DNA of 64,000 nt from assembly GCA_017993955.1 (NCBI GenBank), contig JAGOLR010000001.1:15876-79875 (forward strand), written 5' to 3'. Source of the stretch: Candidatus Omnitrophota bacterium. GTDB lineage: Bacteria; Omnitrophota; Gorgyraeia; 2-01-FULL-45-10. This document shows, one piece after another, positions 2,319 to 62,397 of this stretch (the stretch's first letter is position 1; every line of letters starts with the position of its first letter). The notes beneath the pieces are model-generated. The model saw nothing but the letters and a program-made list of their open reading frames with translations. It was not told where the DNA came from and did no database searches. Made by a program: the position numbers and the translations under genes.

Positions 2319-4049
2319 TCACGGAAGATTTGGATTTAACTCTTTAGCTATTCCGTACGCCTCGTCTGCAGCCTGTTCTTGACCCAGTTTTCGGTATGCC
2401 TTGCTTAGATTATAGTAGCCTATGGCATTGTATGGGTTTATATCTACGGCTTTCTTATATAATCTAGCCGCTTCGTCAAAATGACCTAATCGGTACGAAA
2501 TATTCCCCATATTGCTGTATGTTTCCGAATAATTAGGTCTTATTTCGAGGGCTTGGCGATATGCATTCATGGCAGCCTCATGATCACCTAAAGCATCGTA
2601 AGCTGTTCCGAGGTTATTATACGCATCGGCAAAACGCGGATTGACTGCGATGGCTTTCTTATATATTTCTACGGCATCCTGCAACTTACCCAATTTATTA
2701 TACAGATTACCAAGGTTGGAATAAGCGCCTGTATATTGAGGGTCGGATTCTATGGCCTTTTTATATGAGCCAATGCTCTTTTCATAATCCCCCATATCGG
2801 CATACATATTACCCAGATTGTTATAGATACGCGCGGCATCGGTATATTTTAATGTACGTTCATAAAATGTAATTGGGTCTTTCCAGTAAACATTCTGTGT
2901 TATGGTAAGATAACCGAAAAATATCGCTACCAATCCTAATACGGAAAACGCGGTTATTTTAAAACCGTTTATATCCGATAGTTTCGCCAAAAAATATCCG
3001 ACAACGCCAAATAACCCTATAGACGGTACATAAAGCCAGTGTTCGGCCATATACGCATTTATAGGGTAAAGATTTGAGACCGGTAACATACACAGGCAAA
3101 ACCAACCTAATAAGAAAAAAATGGGCTTTTCATTGCGAGTAACATAAACATATAACAAAAAGAACGCTAAAATTATAACCCCTGCTAATACCATTGGATC
3201 TGTTAAGCCGAATGTGCGTTTCCCGTATTCCATATGCAGACCAAAGGGAAAAAATATTATACGAGCGTATTGAAAGATCGCCGCAAAAAACCCAGCTAAT
3301 CTTTCAGTAAAAGGTTGCGGTATCACCGGCTCTGAAAGAGGAAAAGAAAAGACTGTAAGTCTAAGCGTTATATATAAAGCTGTAATGGCACCTATAACAC
3401 AGGCGGGCACAACCTTGATCTTATATTTGAAAACATAATGATATAGACATAGCAAGAATGGAAGTATGATTGCGTATTCTTTGGAAAGTAAAGATAATAC
3501 ATAACAAGCCGCCGATAAAACAAAAAATGCCGTTTTATTCGAATCTAAATATTTAATATAAAAGGTAAAAAACGCGGCTATTCCTAAACCCGCCAACACA
3601 TCGGCCCTGCCTGATATATATGCTACAGCTTCTACATGAACGGGATGAACCATAAAAAGAATGGAAGTAAAAAATCCGGCACGGGTGTTTTTGAACAGAG
3701 AAGAAATAAAGATATAGATGAATATGCCGACCAATATATGCATTATCGTATTCGTGAGATGATAACCAAATACCGAAAGGCCCCATAAAAAATAATCTAT
3801 CATGTAAGTAAATATTTGGACCGGCCTATAAAAGCTGTAGCTAAAATTCGCTCCGGCACCTATATCTTGAGTAAAGACCTTGGGAAGATAAGAGAGGTTC
3901 TTGACGTAAATATTATCGACTATGAGTCGGTCGTCATCGTATAGAAACTGATTACCGAATGAATTAGCATAAATAATAAAACCCAAGACCGCTATTATCG
4001 CTATATGTGCTATGCTTAGAGTTCTTGGATCTTCTTTAATTTGACCCAT
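2319..4049 (-). CDS. Multi-pass membrane protein with C-terminal TPR repeats (PMT/TMTC-like glycosyltransferase-39-type architecture)
   Basis: 576 aa. The N-terminal ~400 aa are hydrophobic with many TM helices. The C-terminus carries repeated AY.NLG..Y...G....A...Y..A TPR units. Confidence 0.55.
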   Translation of the reverse strand: MGQIKEDPRTLSIAHIAIIAVLGFIIYANSFGNQFLYDDDRLIVDNIYVKNLSYLPKVFTQDIGAGANFSYSFYRPVQIFTYMIDYFLWGLSVFGYHLTNTIMHILVGIFIYIFISSLFKNTRAGFFTSILFMVHPVHVEAVAYISGRADVLAGLGIAAFFTFYIKYLDSNKTAFFVLSAACYVLSLLSKEYAIILPFLLCLYHYVFKYKIKVVPACVIGAITALYITLRLTVFSFPLSEPVIPQPFTERLAGFFAAIFQYARIIFFPFGLHMEYGKRTFGLTDPMVLAGVIILAFFLLYVYVTRNEKPIFFLLGWFCLCMLPVSNLYPINAYMAEHWLYVPSIGLFGVVGYFLAKLSDINGFKITAFSVLGLVAIFFGYLTITQNVYWKDPITFYERTLKYTDAARIYNNLGNMYADMGDYEKSIGSYKKAIESDPQYTGAYSNLGNLYNKLGKLQDAVEIYKKAIAVNPRFADAYNNLGTAYDALGDHEAAMNAYRQALEIRPNYSETYSNMGNISYRLGHFDEAARLYKKAVDINPYNAIGYYNLSKAYRKLGQEQAADEAYGIAKELNPNLP

Positions 4050-5105: not shown

Positions 5106-6101
5106 TTATTGTATCCTTATCTTTTCCACTTCTGTCTGAGACGCCGGCTTTACGCTTACAGTCGTGCGTATATTTGAACCATGCATCCAGTAGTCCACTG
5201 CCAAATATGGCTCGTGCCTGAATTTAGTGTGGTAAGCGGCTATTCCCGCGGCGTGTTTTATAATATCATCGTCTACCTTACCGCGCAAAAGCGAGACCGG
5301 ACCTTGCTTATCTTTCAGCTTAAGATATACGTCTCCCGGAACCGCTATTCTTTGCAATTCCATATTTTCGTTTTCGTCTCTTCCGACCACGAGTTTTACA
5401 TCGTCCGCAATGCGATAATGCCGGCCTTCTTTTAATAACAGTAGATTGTCAATATTAACGGCATCATGCTTAAACAGGTCCTTGACGCGCTTTGCAAAGC
5501 CGGGATCTGTAAGAAGGCACCCACCTGAAGGATTGGGATACTCTTTGATACTGAATTTTTCGGCCAGGGACATTTGCGGTTTTCTGGACCTGCCCCTAAT
5601 ATCGAGGAGCTTTTCGCGGTCCACTATCCCTTCCTTCTCCGGGATGGTCGGCTCAAGCAGCTTCGCAGAGAGCGGACGCAGAAGCATGCCTCGCACCCCG
5701 GCTTTTTTTTCTATCAGATTGAGGGCGTCTTTCCTTTGGGACATGGGGCGCTCGCCGAGCACTTCTCCCGTAACCAAAAAAGCTCCTCCGGCTTTCTCCA
5801 TATACTCTTTCGCTTTCTTAAGCATGAATATTTTGCAGTCTATGCAGGGGTTTACGTTCGCCCCGTATCCATGCGCCGGGTTTTTTAGTATTCCTAAGTA
5901 CTCCTTTGTTATGTCGAACACCTTCAGCGGTACGCCGATCGCCTTGGCCGCTTTCTCAGCCCCGGCCTTACCTCCGCTGCAGGCAGCGAAGTCTATGTGA
6001 TAATGGACGCAGTCCACTTCGAACCCAAGCTCTTTCATGAGCCTTGCGGCAAGGATACTGTCGAGACCACCGGATAACAGAACGATCGCTTTATATGACA
6101 T
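5106..6101 (-). CDS. PP-loop ATPase, ThiI-like adenylyltransferase domain protein (no THUMP domain)
   Basis: The SGGLDS PP-loop lies near the N-terminus. NPCIDCK and TGEVLGERPMSQ resemble the ThiI AANH domain. Length 331 aa. Confidence 0.45.
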   Translation of the reverse strand: MSYKAIVLLSGGLDSILAARLMKELGFEVDCVHYHIDFAACSGGKAGAEKAAKAIGVPLKVFDITKEYLGILKNPAHGYGANVNPCIDCKIFMLKKAKEYMEKAGGAFLVTGEVLGERPMSQRKDALNLIEKKAGVRGMLLRPLSAKLLEPTIPEKEGIVDREKLLDIRGRSRKPQMSLAEKFSIKEYPNPSGGCLLTDPGFAKRVKDLFKHDAVNIDNLLLLKEGRHYRIADDVKLVVGRDENENMELQRIAVPGDVYLKLKDKQGPVSLLRGKVDDDIIKHAAGIAAYHTKFRHEPYLAVDYWMHGSNIRTTVSVKPASQTEVEKIRIQ

Positions 6102-7436: not shown

Positions 7437-7663
7437 TGTGTATAAAAAATCCCCGCTGATGCCGTGTGTGATTGAATTATCTTGACCCTGTTCGTAACAG
7501 GTGGGTGCCCTCGTACGTACGCCAAGGCGTCCGTTCAGTTAGGCTCCCTAGTTTAGTGCTAATGGCTCAAGATTCTCCATCCGAATCACGCACATCGCAG
7601 GGAATTTTTATTCCACTACAAGTATATCACAAAAATCGGGAAAGACAAATCGAACCCCGGCCG

Positions 7664-14097: not shown

Positions 14098-14328
14098 TAG
14101 CAATTTTCTCCGAAAATTGCACCCCAGAGGGGATTAAATGTTTTGTATTTTTGCTATCATTAGGCAAAAATACAAAACTAAAGAGTCCCGATGGGAAAAT
14201 GCCGATTCAAAAACCCAGTGCTTAATTTATTGCCCCTCGGCTAAGCGCTCGATAATTTTCTCCGCTCCGCGTCGAAAATTATCTTCGCAGCCTTCGGGGC
14301 ATTTGCCTCCCCGTACGCGAAAGCAGAT

Positions 14329-14403
14329 TGGAGGCGCGGAGCGGAATTGAACCGCTGAATAGGAGTTTTGCAGACTCCCGCCTTACCTCTTGGCTACCGC
14401 GCC
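14329..14403 (-). tRNA. tRNA-Cys (anticodon GCA)
   Basis: Reverse complement: acceptor GGCGCGG..CCGCGCC, discriminator U, anticodon stem GGAGT/ACTCC with loop CTGCAAA, T-arm AGCGG-TTCAATT-CCGCT, then CCA. It overlaps the 3' end of the upstream ORF by about 21 nt. Confidence 0.75.
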
Positions 14404-31595: not shown

Positions 31596-31673
31596 GTCCC
31601 CATCGTCTAGTCTGGTCTAGGACATCAGATTTTCATTCTGACGACCCGGGTTCGAATCCCGGTGGGGACGCCA
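31596..31673 (+). tRNA. tRNA-Glu (anticodon UUC)
   Basis: Acceptor GTCCCCA..TGGGGAC, D-arm GTCT-AGTCTGGTCTA-GGAC, anticodon loop TTTTCAT, T-arm CCGGG-TTCGAAT-CCCGG, discriminator G, CCA encoded. Confidence 0.85.
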
Positions 31674-31787
31674 TCCTTCTTCGCCCTTCAACATGCAAAT
31701 AGCGGGTAGGGCTTCGCAGAGATTTTCGGAATCCCAAGGCCCTACGAAGCCATACCTAATATTTTATGTTGATTGGCGAAGTAGACC

Positions 31788-31804
31788 GGTTGGGGACGCC
31801 ATCT
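31788..31804 (+). repeat. Direct repeat of the tRNA-Glu 3' end (GGT-TGGGGACGCCATC), att-site-like
   Basis: A 12-nt exact match (GGGGACGCCATC) plus flanking GGT to tRNA-Glu positions 31660-31675, located about 115 nt downstream of the tRNA. Confidence 0.6.
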
Positions 31805-31945
31805 TAACTATAGTGTTTTCAAGCAGTTGTGCTATGTTTTCCAGTAATGGTTACTAAGAGGGAAATCACGTATTTTATGGCCTGATGGTCCCTATATGGT
31901 CCCCGGAATTATGATGGCTCGATGCACAAATATATAGTTTTAATA

Positions 31946-31972
31946 GGCAACCCAAAAAGGGTTGCTTTTTTA
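31946..31972 (+). terminator. Rho-independent terminator
   Basis: GGCAACCC-aaaaa-GGGTTGC followed by TTTTTT. Confidence 0.7.
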
Positions 31973-32006: not shown

Positions 32007-32720
32007 ATGCTTACACAAAAGCGTAGCAATAAAGGGGGCTATAGAAATTTTTTTGCGAAATATGAGCATATCTGTGAGAAAAAACGCATAAGTCACTATG
32101 CTCAAATTCATTCATTGATTGATTCGTATGCATATCGGTCTAAAATGTTTTGTAAGTCTAACAAAGTCCTCGCACCTAATTTTAATCCCTTTGAATTACT
32201 CTGTATAACCGACGACGAAAGAAAGCATAGCGCAATTCTGGCATGGTTATTCGATCCTTTGGGTAGCCATGGACAAGGTAATATATTTTTTAAAACGTTT
32301 CTCTCATATTTTGACTATGATGCTAAGTTTGCCACCGAAGACTATAAATCTACGACAGAATTCTGCGTTAAGGAGTCGATCATAGATATTTTGATTTATG
32401 GGAGCCGATTTATTTTTTGGGTTGAAAATAAGACCTTCTCACAGGAGGGGCATGACCAGACTAATCGAGAATATCGCGACCTATTAGGATTTTCAAAAAA
32501 ACTTAATATACAAAAAAATATTTTCCCAATATATCTATCTTTATCAGGGGAAAGACCCCAAAATAAAGAATGGCGGCCAATTGCATATCGAGAGCTAGCA
32601 AAGGCTCTCGAGACAGTCATAGAGGATGTTCGATGTGTTTATGTGCAGCATTTTGTGAGATCGTGGATAGTGGTTTTGCAAAAACTGCGAGAAGAAGACA
32701 CGATAGGAGATGAAATATGA
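32007..32720 (+). CDS. Hypothetical protein with PD-(D/E)xK-like nuclease motifs (island gene 1)
   Basis: 237 aa. ITDDERKHSAILAWLFDP ... IIDILIY ... FWVENK gives a D...ExK arrangement typical of restriction-endonuclease-fold proteins. No family confidently recognised. Confidence 0.5.
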   Translation: MLTQKRSNKGGYRNFFAKYEHICEKKRISHYAQIHSLIDSYAYRSKMFCKSNKVLAPNFNPFELLCITDDERKHSAILAWLFDPLGSHGQGNIFFKTFLSYFDYDAKFATEDYKSTTEFCVKESIIDILIYGSRFIFWVENKTFSQEGHDQTNREYRDLLGFSKKLNIQKNIFPIYLSLSGERPQNKEWRPIAYRELAKALETVIEDVRCVYVQHFVRSWIVVLQKLREEDTIGDEI

Positions 32721-33283
32721 GTTCTATTTTTTCCGAGGAAAGCAAATTTCTTGTTTCTAGGTGGCAGACCGTAGAGAAGCTCGACAAAGATATACAGACG
32801 CTCAGATACGAGTTTACGCAGTATTTGGATAGCGTCAGGAAAATATTAAAAAAACGAAACTGGTGGGGTGACGATTTAATATTTGAGCAGTATAGACAAG
32901 AAGGGATTTATATTGCGCGAAAGAGTTGGTTTATCCGAAAAAACGATAGATACCCGGCCATATGGATAGGGGTTGAAGAGTTTAAGCCGGAAAGCATGTT
33001 TGGGTTGGGTGAGCCAGCCGATTGTTATTTATGGGTGTTTGGAAAAATGCTTGGGAAGAAGGCCGATACGGTACGTAATGATTTAACGCGTATAAGCGAA
33101 AAGAATCGGGGGCTAAAAAAATATATATACGGCAAAGAAAATAACCAAATTCTTTATAAACCACTGCCAAAGTATTTTAATAGGGAATATAAAGCATTTA
33201 TCGCGGGCGAACCCTTAAGGGACGCTGCCGATTTTATAGAACGAACATATTTGGCGATTAGAAAATATAAGATAAAGAAATGA
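32717..33283 (+). CDS. Hypothetical protein (island gene 2)
   Basis: 188 aa, basic, with no recognisable motif. Its start overlaps the upstream stop (ATGA). Confidence 0.4.
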   Translation: MSSIFSEESKFLVSRWQTVEKLDKDIQTLRYEFTQYLDSVRKILKKRNWWGDDLIFEQYRQEGIYIARKSWFIRKNDRYPAIWIGVEEFKPESMFGLGEPADCYLWVFGKMLGKKADTVRNDLTRISEKNRGLKKYIYGKENNQILYKPLPKYFNREYKAFIAGEPLRDAADFIERTYLAIRKYKIKK

Positions 33284-34365
33284 CCGAGGCATTCCCGAGC
33301 GGCATACAGGCATTTATTGAATCCGTCCAGTGGACATATGCCAAAACATATGCTACCACGTGGCCGCATTGGTATATTGTTAGAAAGAATGTCGACGAGA
33401 AGATGTTTGTTAGGCTTGTTGAGCATATAAGGGCTCATGGTTACGATGGGAAATTTTATAAACAGACGAACAAGTATATCGACGATGATAAATATAGTTA
33501 TTGGACCATGGGGGCTCCGATAGATGAGACCGAGGTTATTAACCGTTGCTTAAAAGAAGATACATATGAACGACGGCTGGCGAAAGGGACGTTGCCGAAG
33601 CAAGGAAAGACAGACGAGCCTGAGCCTGTGTACCAGGTTGATACATATTTCGATTTTCGGCTGGATGCGCATGGGAAAGATCCGGATACTCATAGCCCCG
33701 CCTTGAGGAGCTGCCACAAATTGCTCTGGAGTAAACCTCTCCCAGGCGGAAAGCTCTTTGAGTTGGTCGAGCGTGGAGCCTACCTATATTACAAATCGGA
33801 AGTCAAAGAATTCTGTCTGTCGAGCGATGCAGTGATTCCAACATTTAGATGGAATGATAAGATCCAAAACATCATCGCAGAGATTCCCGATGAGTTTGAT
33901 CGGTTCAGTGCTATTGGTTATACGATCGGTGGAATGATGGTGTTCCCGGCGCTAAAAGTAGGGAGAAAATGGACGATCAATCAAGCTCGCGGATGTCACC
34001 CCCGGATTAAAGATCGATTTGATCTCACGGTCGAGTGCATTCGGCGGTATTATTTACCTCTACCGGATCAAAAACGTAGCCCTCTGCTTGAAGTCTTGGC
34101 GCGCTATGACGATTTTTTTAACCTGTTTAAAGATTTTCGCGGATACGTCAAATTCTTTCTTTTGCAAGACATCGTCAATGACGAATGCACAGAGGTACAG
34201 TTTTTCGCGCCGTTCGATGATTTTAAGACATCACCGCTCCCCCAAAGCAAAGAGGCATACGAAAGATACATGAAGAAAGCCATTGAATTTATCGAAGCGC
34301 GAAACAAAAGAATCAGAGAATATCGCGATTGGTGTAAGCAGTCGGAAATTTCGGGGAGGAATTAA
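33280..34365 (+). CDS. Hypothetical protein (island gene 3); N-terminal region with tentative YDG/SRA-like motif
   Basis: 361 aa. TWPHWYIVRK ... RAHGYDGKFYKQTNKYIDDDKYSYWTMG loosely recalls the GGY.DD....F.YTG.GG signature of the SRA (YDG) base-flipping domain. Its start overlaps the upstream stop. Confidence 0.4.
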   Translation: MTEAFPSGIQAFIESVQWTYAKTYATTWPHWYIVRKNVDEKMFVRLVEHIRAHGYDGKFYKQTNKYIDDDKYSYWTMGAPIDETEVINRCLKEDTYERRLAKGTLPKQGKTDEPEPVYQVDTYFDFRLDAHGKDPDTHSPALRSCHKLLWSKPLPGGKLFELVERGAYLYYKSEVKEFCLSSDAVIPTFRWNDKIQNIIAEIPDEFDRFSAIGYTIGGMMVFPALKVGRKWTINQARGCHPRIKDRFDLTVECIRRYYLPLPDQKRSPLLEVLARYDDFFNLFKDFRGYVKFFLLQDIVNDECTEVQFFAPFDDFKTSPLPQSKEAYERYMKKAIEFIEARNKRIREYRDWCKQSEISGRN

Positions 34366-34368
34366 GTT

Positions 34369-35331
34369 ATGAAGCTGTTCAGGGCGCTAGACGATGATTT
34401 CATGGCGGATCTTTCAGGGGGGAAATTAAATTATATATTACAATTTGAAAGAGACTACAGGAAATCGCTCATCGTTGAAATTAGGGATAATTATTTGGAG
34501 CTGTATTTTTTGGGGCATGCGATAAAAGTTACACGGGACAAACAAGCGCGGTATTGTCTATCCGCTTCGACAACGTTCGACCCTTGCCGTGCTTCATGTA
34601 ATGAATTTAAGGACATTGTTACACGGGCAGGTTCCGGACGATGGAAGGTATATTTTAACGATATAAACGATTACGACCAGTTTTACCGTCTTATGAGAAC
34701 GGTTATTGCTGAAATAGTGATCCGCAAGGAGGGTGATATATCCGAAGGCGTTAGCGAGCTTAATCATCATGCAGATAACATGGCAATCGGAAAGAACGGC
34801 ATACTTGTTATCGACAAGCAGGTCGTATATCCCGGCATAAGGAAAAATAGAATCGATCTTTTGGGGGTTAGAAGGCTTCCCGGTAAAAAAGATCTGTTTA
34901 CATTTTCAGTCATTGAATTAAAAAATAAGAATAATCCCCAGATTGGGGAGGTTTTTACTCAAACTCGACGCTATATAGATCTTATATACGATAAGAGGGA
35001 AATCTATGAGGACTTTAGAAGTACCTACGCGACAGTTATACGTCAAAAAATCGAGTTAGGATTGATCAAGCGGATCAGATGCAATATTGCGCCCTGGGAT
35101 GCAATATCAAAGCAAGATATCGCAGGCCTAGTAATTCTCGACAATTTTAATATGAGAAGGGATCTCCAAGAGAACGGGCTGATGCAAAGAGCCCTGCGCG
35201 ATTGGAAGCAAATACCAAAAATCTATAACATAAAATTTTTCATGAAGACAAATGTCCTTGATGACACATTCTTTTTAGGATATCAGGATGCGTTAAAGCT
35301 ATACGCAGAATATCGAAGATGCAACTCATAA
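34369..35331 (+). CDS. Hypothetical protein with PD-(D/E)xK-like nuclease motif (island gene 4)
   Basis: 320 aa. ILVIDKQ ... RIDLLGV ... FSVIELKNK gives a D...ExK signature. Unknown N-terminal domain. Confidence 0.45.
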   Translation: MKLFRALDDDFMADLSGGKLNYILQFERDYRKSLIVEIRDNYLELYFLGHAIKVTRDKQARYCLSASTTFDPCRASCNEFKDIVTRAGSGRWKVYFNDINDYDQFYRLMRTVIAEIVIRKEGDISEGVSELNHHADNMAIGKNGILVIDKQVVYPGIRKNRIDLLGVRRLPGKKDLFTFSVIELKNKNNPQIGEVFTQTRRYIDLIYDKREIYEDFRSTYATVIRQKIELGLIKRIRCNIAPWDAISKQDIAGLVILDNFNMRRDLQENGLMQRALRDWKQIPKIYNIKFFMKTNVLDDTFFLGYQDALKLYAEYRRCNS

Positions 35332-36611
35332 TTCATCGCGGCACACATAATATAGGCGGGACATGCGTTGAGATTGCCACTGCGCAGTCCCGCATTATTA
35401 TTGACCTTGGCATGCCTCTCGAAGAGAATGGAGAGCGGTTTGATATTAGGAAATATAAACACCTTTCCGAGCCGGATCTGGTCAAGGAGGGCAAGCTACC
35501 CGATGTCAAAGGCCTCTATAAATGGGATACAGAATCAAAGAGAATCGACGCTATCCTTATTTCCCACTCCCATCAGGACCATTACGGCTATCTCTCCTAT
35601 GTAAATCCTGCTATCCCGATCTATGCGAGCGAGGGATGCAAAGAGCTCATGGCCGTTGCGTACTATTTCGGGCAGAGCAGATTTGATCCCGCAAACGTGA
35701 TCGTGAAGAAGCCGTGGGATACCTTTAAGGATATTGCGGGAATGGAAGTGACGCCATATCTGGTTGATCACTCGGCGGCCGATGCGTTTGCATATCTAAT
35801 CGAGGCAGATAAAAAGCGGATATTTTATGCGGGAGATTTCCGGGGGCATGGCAAAAAGAAGATCCTCTTTGAGAACATGCTTAAGCACCCACCAAAAAAC
35901 ATAGATCTTTTAATGCTTGAGGGGACCACCATTGAGGCAGCAAGAGTGGAGGAGCAGGCTTCCGAGCAGGACGTGGAAGAAAAGCTGGTGAGCTTGTTCG
36001 GCGAAAACAACAAGCTCGTTATATTCGCATGCTCTCATCAGAACATCGATCGATTAACAGTTCTTTATAATGCTTGCTTAAGGACCGATAAGACGCTGGC
36101 GATGATCCCATACACAGCATATATACTGCACAAGTTGAAGATACTTTCAGATAAGATTCCGCAGCATAGTATGAAAAACATTCGTGTTTTCTTCGAAGGC
36201 ACGCCGAATACGAAACGAGTTCTGGCAGACGAAGAACTTTGCGAAAAGCTCAGGAGGGTATATATCGGCTACGACGAGATCGTAGCCCATAAAGAGCGCA
36301 TGGTGGTGCTCGATTCCACATTTGTAAGGAAGCAGTTCGGAAGGCGTGGATATCTGAAAGATGCGATGCTGATATATTCGCTTTGGGACGGATACCTTGA
36401 AGATGTGAAACCATTCTGGGATGATCACGGCGTTCATATCAAAAAATTACATTCAAGCGGCCATGCGAGCGTAGACGAATTAAAACAATTTGTGAGTGCC
36501 CTTAAGCCGGCGCGTATTATTCCTATACACACCAAGCATCCGGAAAAATTTCACGAGCATTTTGGTGATATAGTGATGAAGGTTTCAGATGGAGAGCGGG
36601 TAAATTTGTGA
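35319..36611 (+). CDS. Metallo-beta-lactamase-fold beta-CASP-type nuclease (RNase J/CPSF-like) (island gene 5)
   Basis: 430 aa. The N-terminal G-rich segment (HRGTHNIGGTCVEI) and the HSHQDH, DHS and GDF motifs match the MBL fold. SSGHAS and PIHTKHPE match beta-CASP motifs B and C. It overlaps the upstream gene by 13 nt. Confidence 0.6.
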   Translation: MQLIIHRGTHNIGGTCVEIATAQSRIIIDLGMPLEENGERFDIRKYKHLSEPDLVKEGKLPDVKGLYKWDTESKRIDAILISHSHQDHYGYLSYVNPAIPIYASEGCKELMAVAYYFGQSRFDPANVIVKKPWDTFKDIAGMEVTPYLVDHSAADAFAYLIEADKKRIFYAGDFRGHGKKKILFENMLKHPPKNIDLLMLEGTTIEAARVEEQASEQDVEEKLVSLFGENNKLVIFACSHQNIDRLTVLYNACLRTDKTLAMIPYTAYILHKLKILSDKIPQHSMKNIRVFFEGTPNTKRVLADEELCEKLRRVYIGYDEIVAHKERMVVLDSTFVRKQFGRRGYLKDAMLIYSLWDGYLEDVKPFWDDHGVHIKKLHSSGHASVDELKQFVSALKPARIIPIHTKHPEKFHEHFGDIVMKVSDGERVNL

Positions 36612-54279: not shown

Positions 54280-54338
54280 TAATTTGACATCGCCCGGGTA
54301 TTGGGCTAAAATAAATAAAATTAATAAACCTTTTAAAC

Positions 54339-54418
54339 CCAGTCCCGTGAGGCTGGAAAGGGAGAGCGAAGATGGAAACTGATCCCGTTTATCTATTTAT
54401 AGATAGGCGGGTTTTTTG
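54339..54418 (+). promoter_or_regulatory. PyrR-binding anti-antiterminator loop plus terminator (pyr attenuator)
   Basis: AGUCCCGUGAGGCU at 54341-54354 matches the PyrR box ARUCCNGNGAGGYU. A terminator hairpin CCCGTTTATCTAT-tta-TAGATAGGCGGG plus TTTTTTG follows at 54384-54418, just upstream of pyrR. Confidence 0.7.
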
Positions 54419-61995: not shown

Positions 61996-62138
61996 CGGGA
62001 TTCAGTGATTGCCGCGGTAAAAGTTTTGTGTTATTATGTGATAGCTCCAAAAGCACTCTTTTGAATTTCTATCTTTCTATGATAAAAGATCGAAATTCAT
62101 TTATTCGCTTTTGGAGCGAAATTTGCTTAGCAAATTTC

Positions 62139-62213
62139 GGGCAAGTAGCTCAATGGCGGAGCACTCGGTTTACATCCGAGTGGTTACAGGTTCGAGTCCT
62201 GTCTTGCCCACCA
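62139..62213 (+). tRNA. tRNA-Val (anticodon UAC)
   Basis: Acceptor GGGCAAG..CTTGCCC, D-arm GCTC-AATGGCG-GAGC, anticodon stem CTCGG/CCGAG with loop TTTACAT, T-arm ACAGG-TTCGAGT-CCTGT, ACCA. Confidence 0.8.
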
Positions 62214-62340
62214 TTCTGCTTCGTCCGTCACCCTGTAAGTTGAGGTAGGACTTCGCAGAAATTGAAGTAAGCTGTAAATAGAACGTTCCCGCGGCGCCGC
62301 ACCCGAGCTTACGCATTGATTGGCGAGGCAGGGCATTAAA

Positions 62341-62377
62341 TTAAAAAACTCCATGTAAAAATATATGGAGTTTTTTA
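62341..62377. terminator. Bidirectional rho-independent terminator
   Basis: AAAAAACTCCAT-gtaaaaatat-ATGGAGTTTTTT between tRNA-Val (+) and the DEAD-box helicase (-). Confidence 0.7.
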
Positions 62378-62397
62378 ATGGATGTTTTAATTTTTGC

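Follow-up and report, generated by a model that had tools for sequence, protein, structure and literature searches.

The Locus and Its Two Element Copies

The DNA analysed here, a 64,000-nt stretch of contig JAGOLR010000001.1 from a Candidatus Omnitrophota bacterium (hereafter the window, meaning this stretch at its full length), carries a short non-coding repeat element in two copies, one behind a tRNA-Glu(UUC) gene and the other behind a tRNA-Val(UAC) gene (Table 1). Each copy starts at the first base past the CCA of its tRNA. An earlier note on this DNA had singled out two sequence blocks behind these unrelated tRNAs and held that the same module at the same spacing is not a matter of chance, which alignment and shuffled controls have borne out. 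Block 1 (GTAGGRCTTCGCAGARATT), at 31706-31724 and 62245-62263, agrees at 17/19 positions and lies 33 nt after tRNA-Glu and 32 nt after tRNA-Val, exactly as had been claimed; for block 2 (TTGATTGGCGARG) the match held and only the second coordinate proved to be one base off, the two sites being 31769-31781 and 62316-62328.

Within the window, block 1 has no third site even if three mismatches are allowed, and two matches were obtained in 0/100 dinucleotide-preserving shuffles, while a search with block 2 returned one extra match with one mismatch, inside gyrB. Pairwise alignment extends the homology beyond both blocks, from the first base past the CCA to GGCGARGYAG, with 75 % mean column identity between 31674-31830 and 62214-62380. 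A family covariance model run with filters off finds exactly two copies in the 64 kb (E about 6e-18), both at tRNA ends and none elsewhere, the next independent match in the window having E = 0.29; copy 1 covers model positions 1-115 with 95.1 bits (nhmmer E = 2e-23). The two blocks are conserved hairpin arms of a longer homologous module, and the window holds two copies of the element to which they belong.

Table 1. Positions of the two element copies, their target tRNAs and associated features in the window.
Feature	Position	Strand	Basis
tRNA-Glu(UUC), encoded CCA, target of copy 1	31596..31673	+	ARAGORN; Rfam tRNA 62.7 bits
Element copy 1, 113 nt, class I, ends ..GGCGAAGTAGA-C	31674..31786	+	covariance-model hit
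Predicted hairpin 1 of copy 1	31676..31720	+	RNAalifold and pair counts, 21 copies
Predicted hairpin 2 of copy 1	31741..31784	+	covariation, 21 copies
Direct repeat CCGGTTGGGGACGCCA, read as target-site duplication of copy 1	31787..31802	+	sequence
Terminator-like hairpin and T-run, about 160 nt downstream of copy 1	31945..31967	+	consensus scan, pattern match only
Promoter-like site: TTGCCG, 17-nt spacer, TATTAT, TG before the second hexamer	62009..62037	+	consensus scan, pattern match only
tRNA-Val(UAC), encoded CCA, target of copy 2	62139..62213	+	ARAGORN; Rfam tRNA 71.2 bits
Element copy 2, about 120 nt, class II, ends ..GGCGAGGCAGGG-CA	62214..62334	+	covariance-model hit, 95.4 bits; family alignment
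Terminator-like hairpin and T-run, about 6 nt past copy 2	62340..62379	+	consensus scan

Anatomy and Hairpin Structure

The element is 97-145 nt long (typically roughly 115 nt), contains no open reading frame (ORF) and is bounded by terminal inverted repeats of 12-13 bp (TTCTGCTTCGCC ... GGCGAAGYAGAA). In the family alignment of 21 full-length copies its parts follow one another as A (TTCTGC-TTC-GCCC), B (GGTA-GGGC-TTC-GCAG-AAATT), a variable centre, D (CTRC-GAA-GCCA-TACC) and E (TGGC-GAA-GYAG-RR), and RNAalifold predicts two hairpins from these copies, A pairing with B and D with E. In each stem-loop, two 4-bp stems are separated by a conserved 3x3 internal loop, and the second of them closes a loop of about 23 nt. 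In copy 1, CTTC-TTC-GCCC (31676-31686) pairs with GGGC-TTC-GCAG (31710-31720) around a 3x3 TTC/TTC internal loop to give hairpin 1 (alignment columns 3-13 with 37-47), and CTAC-GAA-GCCA (31741-31751) pairs with TGGC-GAA-GTAG (31774-31784) around a GAA/GAA internal loop to give hairpin 2. Block 1 consists of GTAG, the 3′ arm of hairpin 1 and a tail; block 2 consists of the loop end and 3′ arm of hairpin 2. Copy 2 shows a compensatory C-G to U-A change (pair 11/39) in hairpin 1 (CTGC-TTC-GTCC with GGAC-TTC-GCAG), and its hairpin 2 has degenerated in part, with a C/A mismatch at one position.

The fold of minimum free energy is a different one, namely a single long hairpin in which A pairs with E and B with D (-48.9 and -42.6 kcal/mol for copies 1 and 2, as compared to -22.3 and -31.9 kcal/mol for two hairpins). 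As a functional fold it was rejected, as it displays no covariation beyond shuffles (178/500) and breaks exactly at the covarying positions. For the 16 pairs of the two-hairpin model, on the other hand, 98.8 % of cells are paired, 28 cells carry double changes and the covariation score amounts to 0.246 versus 0.085 in shuffles (0/500 reach 0.246). Columns 104/144 even run through all four Watson-Crick pairs (AU 11, GC 8, CG 1, UA 1), with further covariation in hairpin 2 at columns 111/137 and 112/136. This supports a pair of imperfect stem-loops, rather than one long hairpin, as the predicted conserved structure. Copy 1 also has a strong predicted folding (z = -6.1). D-E (hairpin 2) resembles the reverse complement of A-B (hairpin 1), and the structure is not strand-specific, since both strands score well with the covariance model (78 and 52 bits for the opposite strand of the two window copies, and 52-94 bits overall). 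Wobble and mismatch cells are too few to separate selection on one strand (RNA) from selection on either strand (single-stranded DNA).

Distribution and Insertion Sites

Public collections were scanned with a pattern from the B block in hairpin 1 (GGTAGGNCTTCGCAGANATT). Species-representative genomes contained 8 pattern loci, 6 of which stem from metagenome-assembled genomes (MAGs) of Candidatus Omnitrophota; metagenomes contained 33, about 26 of them with the upstream A block (TTCTGCTTCGCCCTTC) at the same distance and hence true relatives, while viral contigs gave no match with two patterns. The GyrA encoded in the window itself matches the GyrA of a Candidatus Omnitrophica MAG at 100 % identity. 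A census of the window and 41 retrieved loci (L001-L041) with nhmmer and ARAGORN yielded 38 distinct copies, and the repeat family appears, as far as sampled, to be nearly confined to Candidatus Omnitrophota. With a search pattern from hairpin 1, the census is skewed to copies that keep this half; an excess of hairpin-1-only copies, considered as a sign of directional copying, was set aside as ascertainment bias for the same reason. Rfam (Rfam 15) has no family over the element, neither for the whole window at gathering thresholds nor for both loci at E up to 10, where only chance microRNA-type matches far below threshold fall on it, and no account of an Omnitrophota tRNA-linked repeat was found in the literature. 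The element thus appears to be undescribed in Rfam or the searchable literature, its exact targeting of tRNA ends throughout the gene class being the unusual part.

Twelve of the 38 copies start at distance 0 past the CCA of a complete tRNA, and these tRNAs carry 12 different anticodons (Gln-UUG, Leu-CAG, Cys-GCA, Leu-GAG, Leu-UAA, Glu-UUC, Val-UAC, Lys-UUU, Ser-GGA, Tyr-GUA, Val-CAC, and Glu-CUC); an additional, weaker copy stands behind Met-CAU. The orientation of tRNA-abutting copies is always that of the tRNA, and the junction at the CCA is not a selection artefact, as the search pattern is internal to the element. Another 11/38 follow a tRNA 3′ fragment ending in CCA, among them tandem arrays of the type element-fragment-element-fragment in L001, L016, and L023. 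Four hairpin-1-only copies lie just upstream of a tRNA and are preceded by a duplicate of its first 7-13 nt, which in L032 also includes about 20 nt of leader. The remaining copies are located between ordinary genes, for example, in L014 (about 2950-2962) and L028 (about 1897-1910), where 5-6 nt separate the element from the downstream ribosome-binding site of a divergent gene and the duplicated targets (CTATTT and CTCCT) are pyrimidine-rich. The earlier note had regarded occurrence at many non-tRNA locations as the mark of a generic repeat: about a third of the family members do lie at non-tRNA sites elsewhere, but 23/38 stand directly past a CCA.

As a separate observation, the trailer of the window's tRNA-Cys gene (14329-14403; trailer at 14290-14328 on the - strand) starts with ATCTGCTTTCGCG, which is similar to the first 13 nt of the element, and contains CTGCGAAG. 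It was considered as a third, degenerate copy and rejected, as neither the hidden Markov model nor the covariance model matches it; judging from its sequence, it may be either unrelated or an old decayed copy. A full element copy is found at tRNA-Cys in L008.

Evidence for Transposition

Orthologous loci of both insertion sites were fetched through GyrA and PyrE homologues, and the relatives that lack the element have 79-88 % GyrA and 79-83 % PyrE identity. The order gyrA-tRNA-Glu is kept in L042-L045 and the element is present in none of these. In L042, whose GyrA is 88 % identical, the empty site reads ...GGGGACGCCA|TCTTAAATGTAGT, so that tRNA-Glu is followed directly by TCTTAA, while the occupied site of the window reads ...GGGGACGCCA|element|CCGGTTGGGGACGCCA|TCTTAACTATAGT; the alignment of the two has a single gap of 128 nt, which corresponds to the element plus the duplicated tRNA end. 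The repeat CCGGTTGGGGACGCCA matches the last 15 nt of tRNA-Glu (31659-31673) followed by one extra T (15/16), and within the window TGGGGACGCCA occurs exactly only at 31663 and 31791. L042 possesses a single copy of this tRNA-end repeat ahead of the same TCTTAA flank. Likewise, the element is absent behind an identical tRNA-Val(UAC) in L046-L048 and L050, and in L046-L048 pyrE, a terminator and the DEAD-box helicase gene are conserved around the empty site. L051 (5633-5650) presents a 17-nt collapsed remnant directly past tRNA-Val(UAC), CCA|TTCTGCTTCGCAGAAAT, in which A is fused to B at the shared GCTTCGC and hairpin 1 is deleted down to a 15-nt mini-palindrome. An element that close relatives lack at the orthologous sites does not belong to the conserved make-up of these tRNA genes.

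The right-hand ends fall into two classes. Class I copies, which include window copy 1, end in G(T/G)AGA, past which the left flank recurs as an exact repeat at offset 0; most of these copies have a one-base C microhomology at the right junction, and nearly all of their duplications begin with C. Class II copies, such as window copy 2, end in GYAGRR followed by CA only. Exact flanking repeats of 4-16 nt were found in 11 copies, a variable length that is atypical for a miniature inverted-repeat transposable element (MITE). At tRNAs they measure 16, 16, 16, 14, 13, and 12 nt and always run from the 3′ strand of the T-stem to the CCA (tRNA positions 61-65 to 76); at non-tRNA sites they measure 6, 6, 5, 4, and 4 nt. 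Copy 2 is regarded as an insertion because of the empty sites and the remnant. In L031 (2293-2500, - strand), a divergent family member is inserted into the hairpin-2 loop of another copy with a 4-nt duplication (CCAT), and the outer copy is itself flanked by CTTTCT. Duplications, empty sites, a remnant, and a nested copy are hallmarks of transposition, and the element is mobile.

Two further observations were made at the same tRNA-Glu(UUC) locus. In L045 (13236-13358), this gene is followed by an unrelated, GC-rich insert of about 105 nt and then an exact 18-nt repeat of the tRNA 3′ end that starts at tRNA position 59; its target geometry equals that of the element although the sequence differs. 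Moreover, window positions 31870-31900 and L042 about 5320-5352 share a stretch GTATTTTATGG ... TGTCCC ... ATGGTC with repeated GGTCCC-like motifs.

Transcription

Around copy 2, a promoter-like site, tRNA-Val, the element, and a terminator-like hairpin follow one another in this order, and several other copies (L035 and L013 among them) also precede terminator-like sequences. Insertion between a tRNA and its terminator probably causes the element to be co-transcribed with the tRNA as a structured 3′ trailer. The suggestion of the earlier note that the blocks represent a trailer element or a small co-transcribed RNA is therefore plausible as a consequence of insertion, both window copies lying between a tRNA and a terminator-like site, but not as a conserved trailer, given that the orthologous sites of close relatives lack it.

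Neighbouring Genes and the Search for an Enzyme

The surroundings of the window copies are mainly of the housekeeping type (gyrB/gyrA, the pyr operon, a DEAD-box helicase gene and the pho regulon), together with a short run of genes for PD-(D/E)XK, DUF6994, and metallo-beta-lactamase-fold proteins. Repeat-flanked copies elsewhere have mnmA, tilS, pheA, scpB, lpxA, thi4, and tRNA synthetase genes beside them. The vicinity of the window copies showed no gene for an integrase, transposase or reverse transcriptase, with the proviso that Cas1 and reverse transcriptase were not properly tested for, and no integrase was found at win1, L012, L016 or L035. As these neighbours are housekeeping genes without an integrase or transposase, the element is considered non-autonomous and its repeats are not regarded as att sites of an island. 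Among 66 neighbouring ORFs, PADLOC listed no Cas1 among the best 25 of 132 families, and PHROG gave one 'integrase' match among the best 25 families listed, which could not be assigned to a locus. A search for a Y1 transposase by tblastn with approximate query sequences of the IS200 and IS608 TnpA returned nothing in 391 kb, which makes for a weak test. A genomic island at tRNA-Glu with a distal repeat was considered as well and rejected, since the tRNA-Glu 3′ end does not occur a third time and 32-54 kb contain no integrase.

Directly past tRNA-Glu, the window encodes at 32007-36611 (+) a PD-(D/E)XK nuclease, an unknown protein, a DUF6994 protein, another unknown protein, and a metallo-beta-lactamase/RMMBL-fold protein. 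In L044, tRNA-Glu leads directly to glmS without this five-gene run, which may represent a small island of accessory or defence-like character lacking an integrase. Small stand-alone ORFs resembling GIY-YIG nucleases are repeatedly found beside tRNA genes in Omnitrophota relatives, namely in L045 (12691-13026, confirmed by Pfam) and, as recognised by eye, in L035 (about 3330-3570), L050 (about 960-1130), and L042 (upstream of tRNA-Glu). Many Omnitrophota GyrA/GyrB homologues contain inteins (PF14890/PF14528; 1276-1375 aa), for example, P0026, P0057, P0075, P0089, and others as well as L045 6072-9902, while gyrA and gyrB of the window have none. A LAGLIDADG endonuclease ORF lies between parA and yidC in the origin region of a relative (L044 1468-1923, - strand). 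The window finally comprises a 6S/SsrS RNA gene at 7446-7606 (-) (RF00013, 70.5 bits with a gathering score of 46.4) and, at 54325-54418 (+), a PyrR-binding leader before the pyr operon (RF00515, 57.8 bits).

Interpretation and Alternatives

Taken together, we consider it likely, with a probability of roughly 80 %, that the repeat is a non-coding, non-autonomous mobile element of the MITE/REPIN-like kind with specificity for tRNA 3′ ends, restricted as sampled to Candidatus Omnitrophota. It is short and non-coding and combines terminal inverted repeats with target duplication and insertion polymorphism, while a parent autonomous element with the same ends, as expected for a MITE, was not detected in about 391 kb of loci. 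It resembles the Correia/NEMIS elements of Neisseria and the ERIC/IRU elements of enterobacteria in its size (100-150 nt), lack of coding capacity, inverted repeats, duplications, presence/absence polymorphism, intergenic location, probable transcription with neighbouring units, and ability to fold into hairpins. In contrast to these, it targets the exact tRNA 3′ end, its duplication measures 2, 4-6 or 12-16 nt instead of being fixed, and each of its ends contains a separate covarying hairpin.

An enzyme encoded elsewhere would presumably move the element in trans, with the phosphodiester bond right past the CCA of tRNA genes as the preferred insertion point and the tRNA orientation as the preferred direction. 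Staggered cleavage would give rise to 4-6-nt duplications at ordinary sites, and the same cleavage at tRNA ends to duplications of 12-16 nt (tRNA positions about 61-76) or of only CA. By precedent, the enzyme might be an IS1634-type DDE transposase or a casposase-like integrase that reads the T-arm. Duplications of 5-6 bp are typical for the IS1634 family, and two members generate variable ones of 8-514 bp (PMC2266710); the family has been reported in Omnitrophota (bioRxiv 10.64898/2026.06.07.730766, a preprint that describes 176 complete genomes). The likeness lies in the duplication lengths, and IS1634/IS1549 are coding elements of 1.5-2 kb with AT-rich targets for which no tRNA specificity has been described.

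Several points weigh against this interpretation. The duplication lengths (2, 4-6, 12-16, and, upstream of tRNAs, about 33 nt) fit no single known ruler, copy 2 is without a clear duplication beyond CA, and a transposase binding double-stranded DNA would not alone explain the complementary covariation within each end. Furthermore, neither an autonomous partner nor a gene with the same ends was seen in the retrieved sequence of about 391 kb, which is a small search space, the census favours copies retaining hairpin 1, and the one genome sampled has 2 copies in 64 kb, unlike classical REP/MITE expansions.

The alternatives are taken in order of decreasing plausibility. The element might primarily be a functional structured RNA, that is, a tRNA 3′-trailer module or small RNA that protects the tRNA 3′ end, guides processing, or acts as a sponge or regulator, its spread being secondary. 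This would be in line with the strict co-orientation with tRNAs in at least 12 cases, with the location of both window copies behind their tRNA and ahead of a terminator, and of the L035 and L013 copies ahead of terminator-like sequences, with complementary covariation in both hairpins and their conserved UUC/UUC and GAA/GAA internal loops, and with the strong predicted folding of copy 1. We nevertheless regard it as doubtful, as the element is absent at orthologous sites and decayed to 17 nt in L051, occurs upstream of divergent genes (L014, L028) and nested in another copy (L031), scores well on both strands, and lacks an Rfam match even at E up to 10; the counts of G-U versus A-C are too small to demonstrate selection on the RNA.

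A bolder version of the mobile-element interpretation concerns the machinery, which could read the tRNA gene itself, either as a ruler-type Cas1/casposase-like integrase that binds the T-arm and cuts 16 bp apart (60/61 and 76/77) or as a reverse-transcriptase process acting at the CCA end. We deem this unlikely on present evidence. Positions 61-76 span 16 nt in every tRNA, and a T-arm-anchored ruler would therefore land exactly past the CCA, which would explain, as a hypothesis, how one element can target a dozen tRNAs. The lengths at tRNA ends are bimodal (2 or 12-16 nt and never 3-11 nt), and no single known mechanism accounts for this pattern, the roughly 33-nt duplications upstream of tRNAs and the covariation within each end. 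The casposase of A. boonei uses the 3′ end of a tRNA as the integration site for DNA bounded by terminal inverted repeats, requires a segment of the T-loop, and generates 15-bp and occasionally 4-bp duplications in vitro (PMC5137440). Casposons and mini-casposons thus share inverted-repeat ends, insertion at tRNA 3′ ends and a duplication of about 15 bp with the element, and its duplications of 12-16 nt (positions 61-65 to 76) are compatible with such a ruler, although the lengths vary and class II has no duplication. However, the casposon duplication lies downstream of the tRNA with a 5-bp overlap, whereas that of the element lies wholly inside it (about positions 61-76); casposons target one tRNA and the element at least 12, and it is far smaller than any casposon described. 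A literature search found no casposons in Omnitrophota.

A retroposon-like origin, in which a reverse transcriptase would read the RNA hairpins and insert its product at the CCA by target-primed or template-switching synthesis, would make the element a bacterial analogue of short interspersed nuclear elements. Such a scenario seems improbable. Duplication lengths from 2 to about 33 nt, the one-base C microhomology of most class I copies, truncated copies that keep the CCA-side end, the junction exactly at the mature tRNA 3′ end, the transcribed position, and hairpin covariation consistent with RNA recognition would all suit it. The terminal inverted repeats and near palindromic symmetry, though, are what DNA transposons typically show, the excess of 5′ halves results from ascertainment bias, and no reverse transcriptase gene was seen near any copy, reverse transcriptase not having been properly tested for. 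No bacterial element is known to combine target-primed insertion with target duplications, which we count against this origin.

The chances are slimmer for a family of repetitive extragenic palindromes (REPs) or REPINs moved by a REP-associated tyrosine transposase (RAYT), a single-strand-DNA transposase of the HUH type that would read each hairpin on either strand. The element shares with REPs and REPINs the arrangement as an inverted doublet of imperfect palindromes, coexisting single units (L006, L007, L019, L020, and L032), GTAG tetranucleotides and a kept hairpin structure, and its covariation within each unit would fit the recognition of hairpins in single-stranded DNA. It makes target duplications, though, which REP, RAYT and IS200/IS605 elements are not known to do. 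REPs are imperfect palindromes of 20-40 nt with GTAG at the 5′ foot (PMC3733652), whereas the units of the element reach about 47 nt with large loops of about 23 nt, and its GTAG is found towards the loop in hairpin 1 or in the stem itself in hairpin 2 and not at a stem foot. Low copy density (2 copies in 64 kb), the preference for tRNA ends, and the empty tblastn search for TnpA (approximate queries, 391 kb) likewise speak against it. Palindrome-associated transposable elements of the IS200/IS605 type are characterised by similar subterminal hairpins on the same strand, insertion 3′ of a fixed tetra- or pentanucleotide, and the absence of terminal inverted repeats and duplications; the hairpins of the element are inverted, their internal loops differ on one strand, and its left flanks at non-tRNA sites have no common motif.

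Least probable is the integrase att core or arm-site origin raised by the earlier note, according to which the repeats would be fused attL and attR arms left behind by an island deletion and the blocks arm sites of a tyrosine integrase: the direct repeat of the tRNA 3′ end that copy 1 nonetheless leaves, spanning T-stem to CCA as at classical tRNA att sites of islands, the insert at the same tRNA-Glu in L045 (unrelated 105 nt, 18-nt repeat), and the window genes past tRNA-Glu that L044 is without would agree with it, but the element is only about 115 nt long (the whole insertion relative to the empty-site relative being only 128 nt), no integrase accompanies either window copy or any of the five repeat-flanked copies checked, a single integrase core cannot match all repeats because their sequences differ among at least 12 different tRNAs, the element is also inserted at non-tRNA sites with 4-6-nt duplications and into a copy of itself, and its boundaries are identical in all copies.

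Biological Implications

Since one exact bond behind at least 12 tRNA genes is targeted, a structural or conserved feature of tRNA genes seems to be recognised instead of a unique sequence. Mobile elements that land safely in this manner may be useful for understanding how uncultivated bacteria with small genomes streamline them and as starting points for programmable or site-specific insertion tools, and the element provides a natural marker for strain-level variation in Omnitrophota. By adding a structured trailer to tRNA transcripts, it may also affect their processing. If a T-arm-anchored ruler integrase or a reverse transcriptase were indeed at work, it would link tRNA-end targeting in bacteria to the chemistry of casposons and CRISPR adaptation, or to retroposition, and with either tRNA-reading machinery a miniature element would achieve site specificity for an entire class of genes by a novel route.

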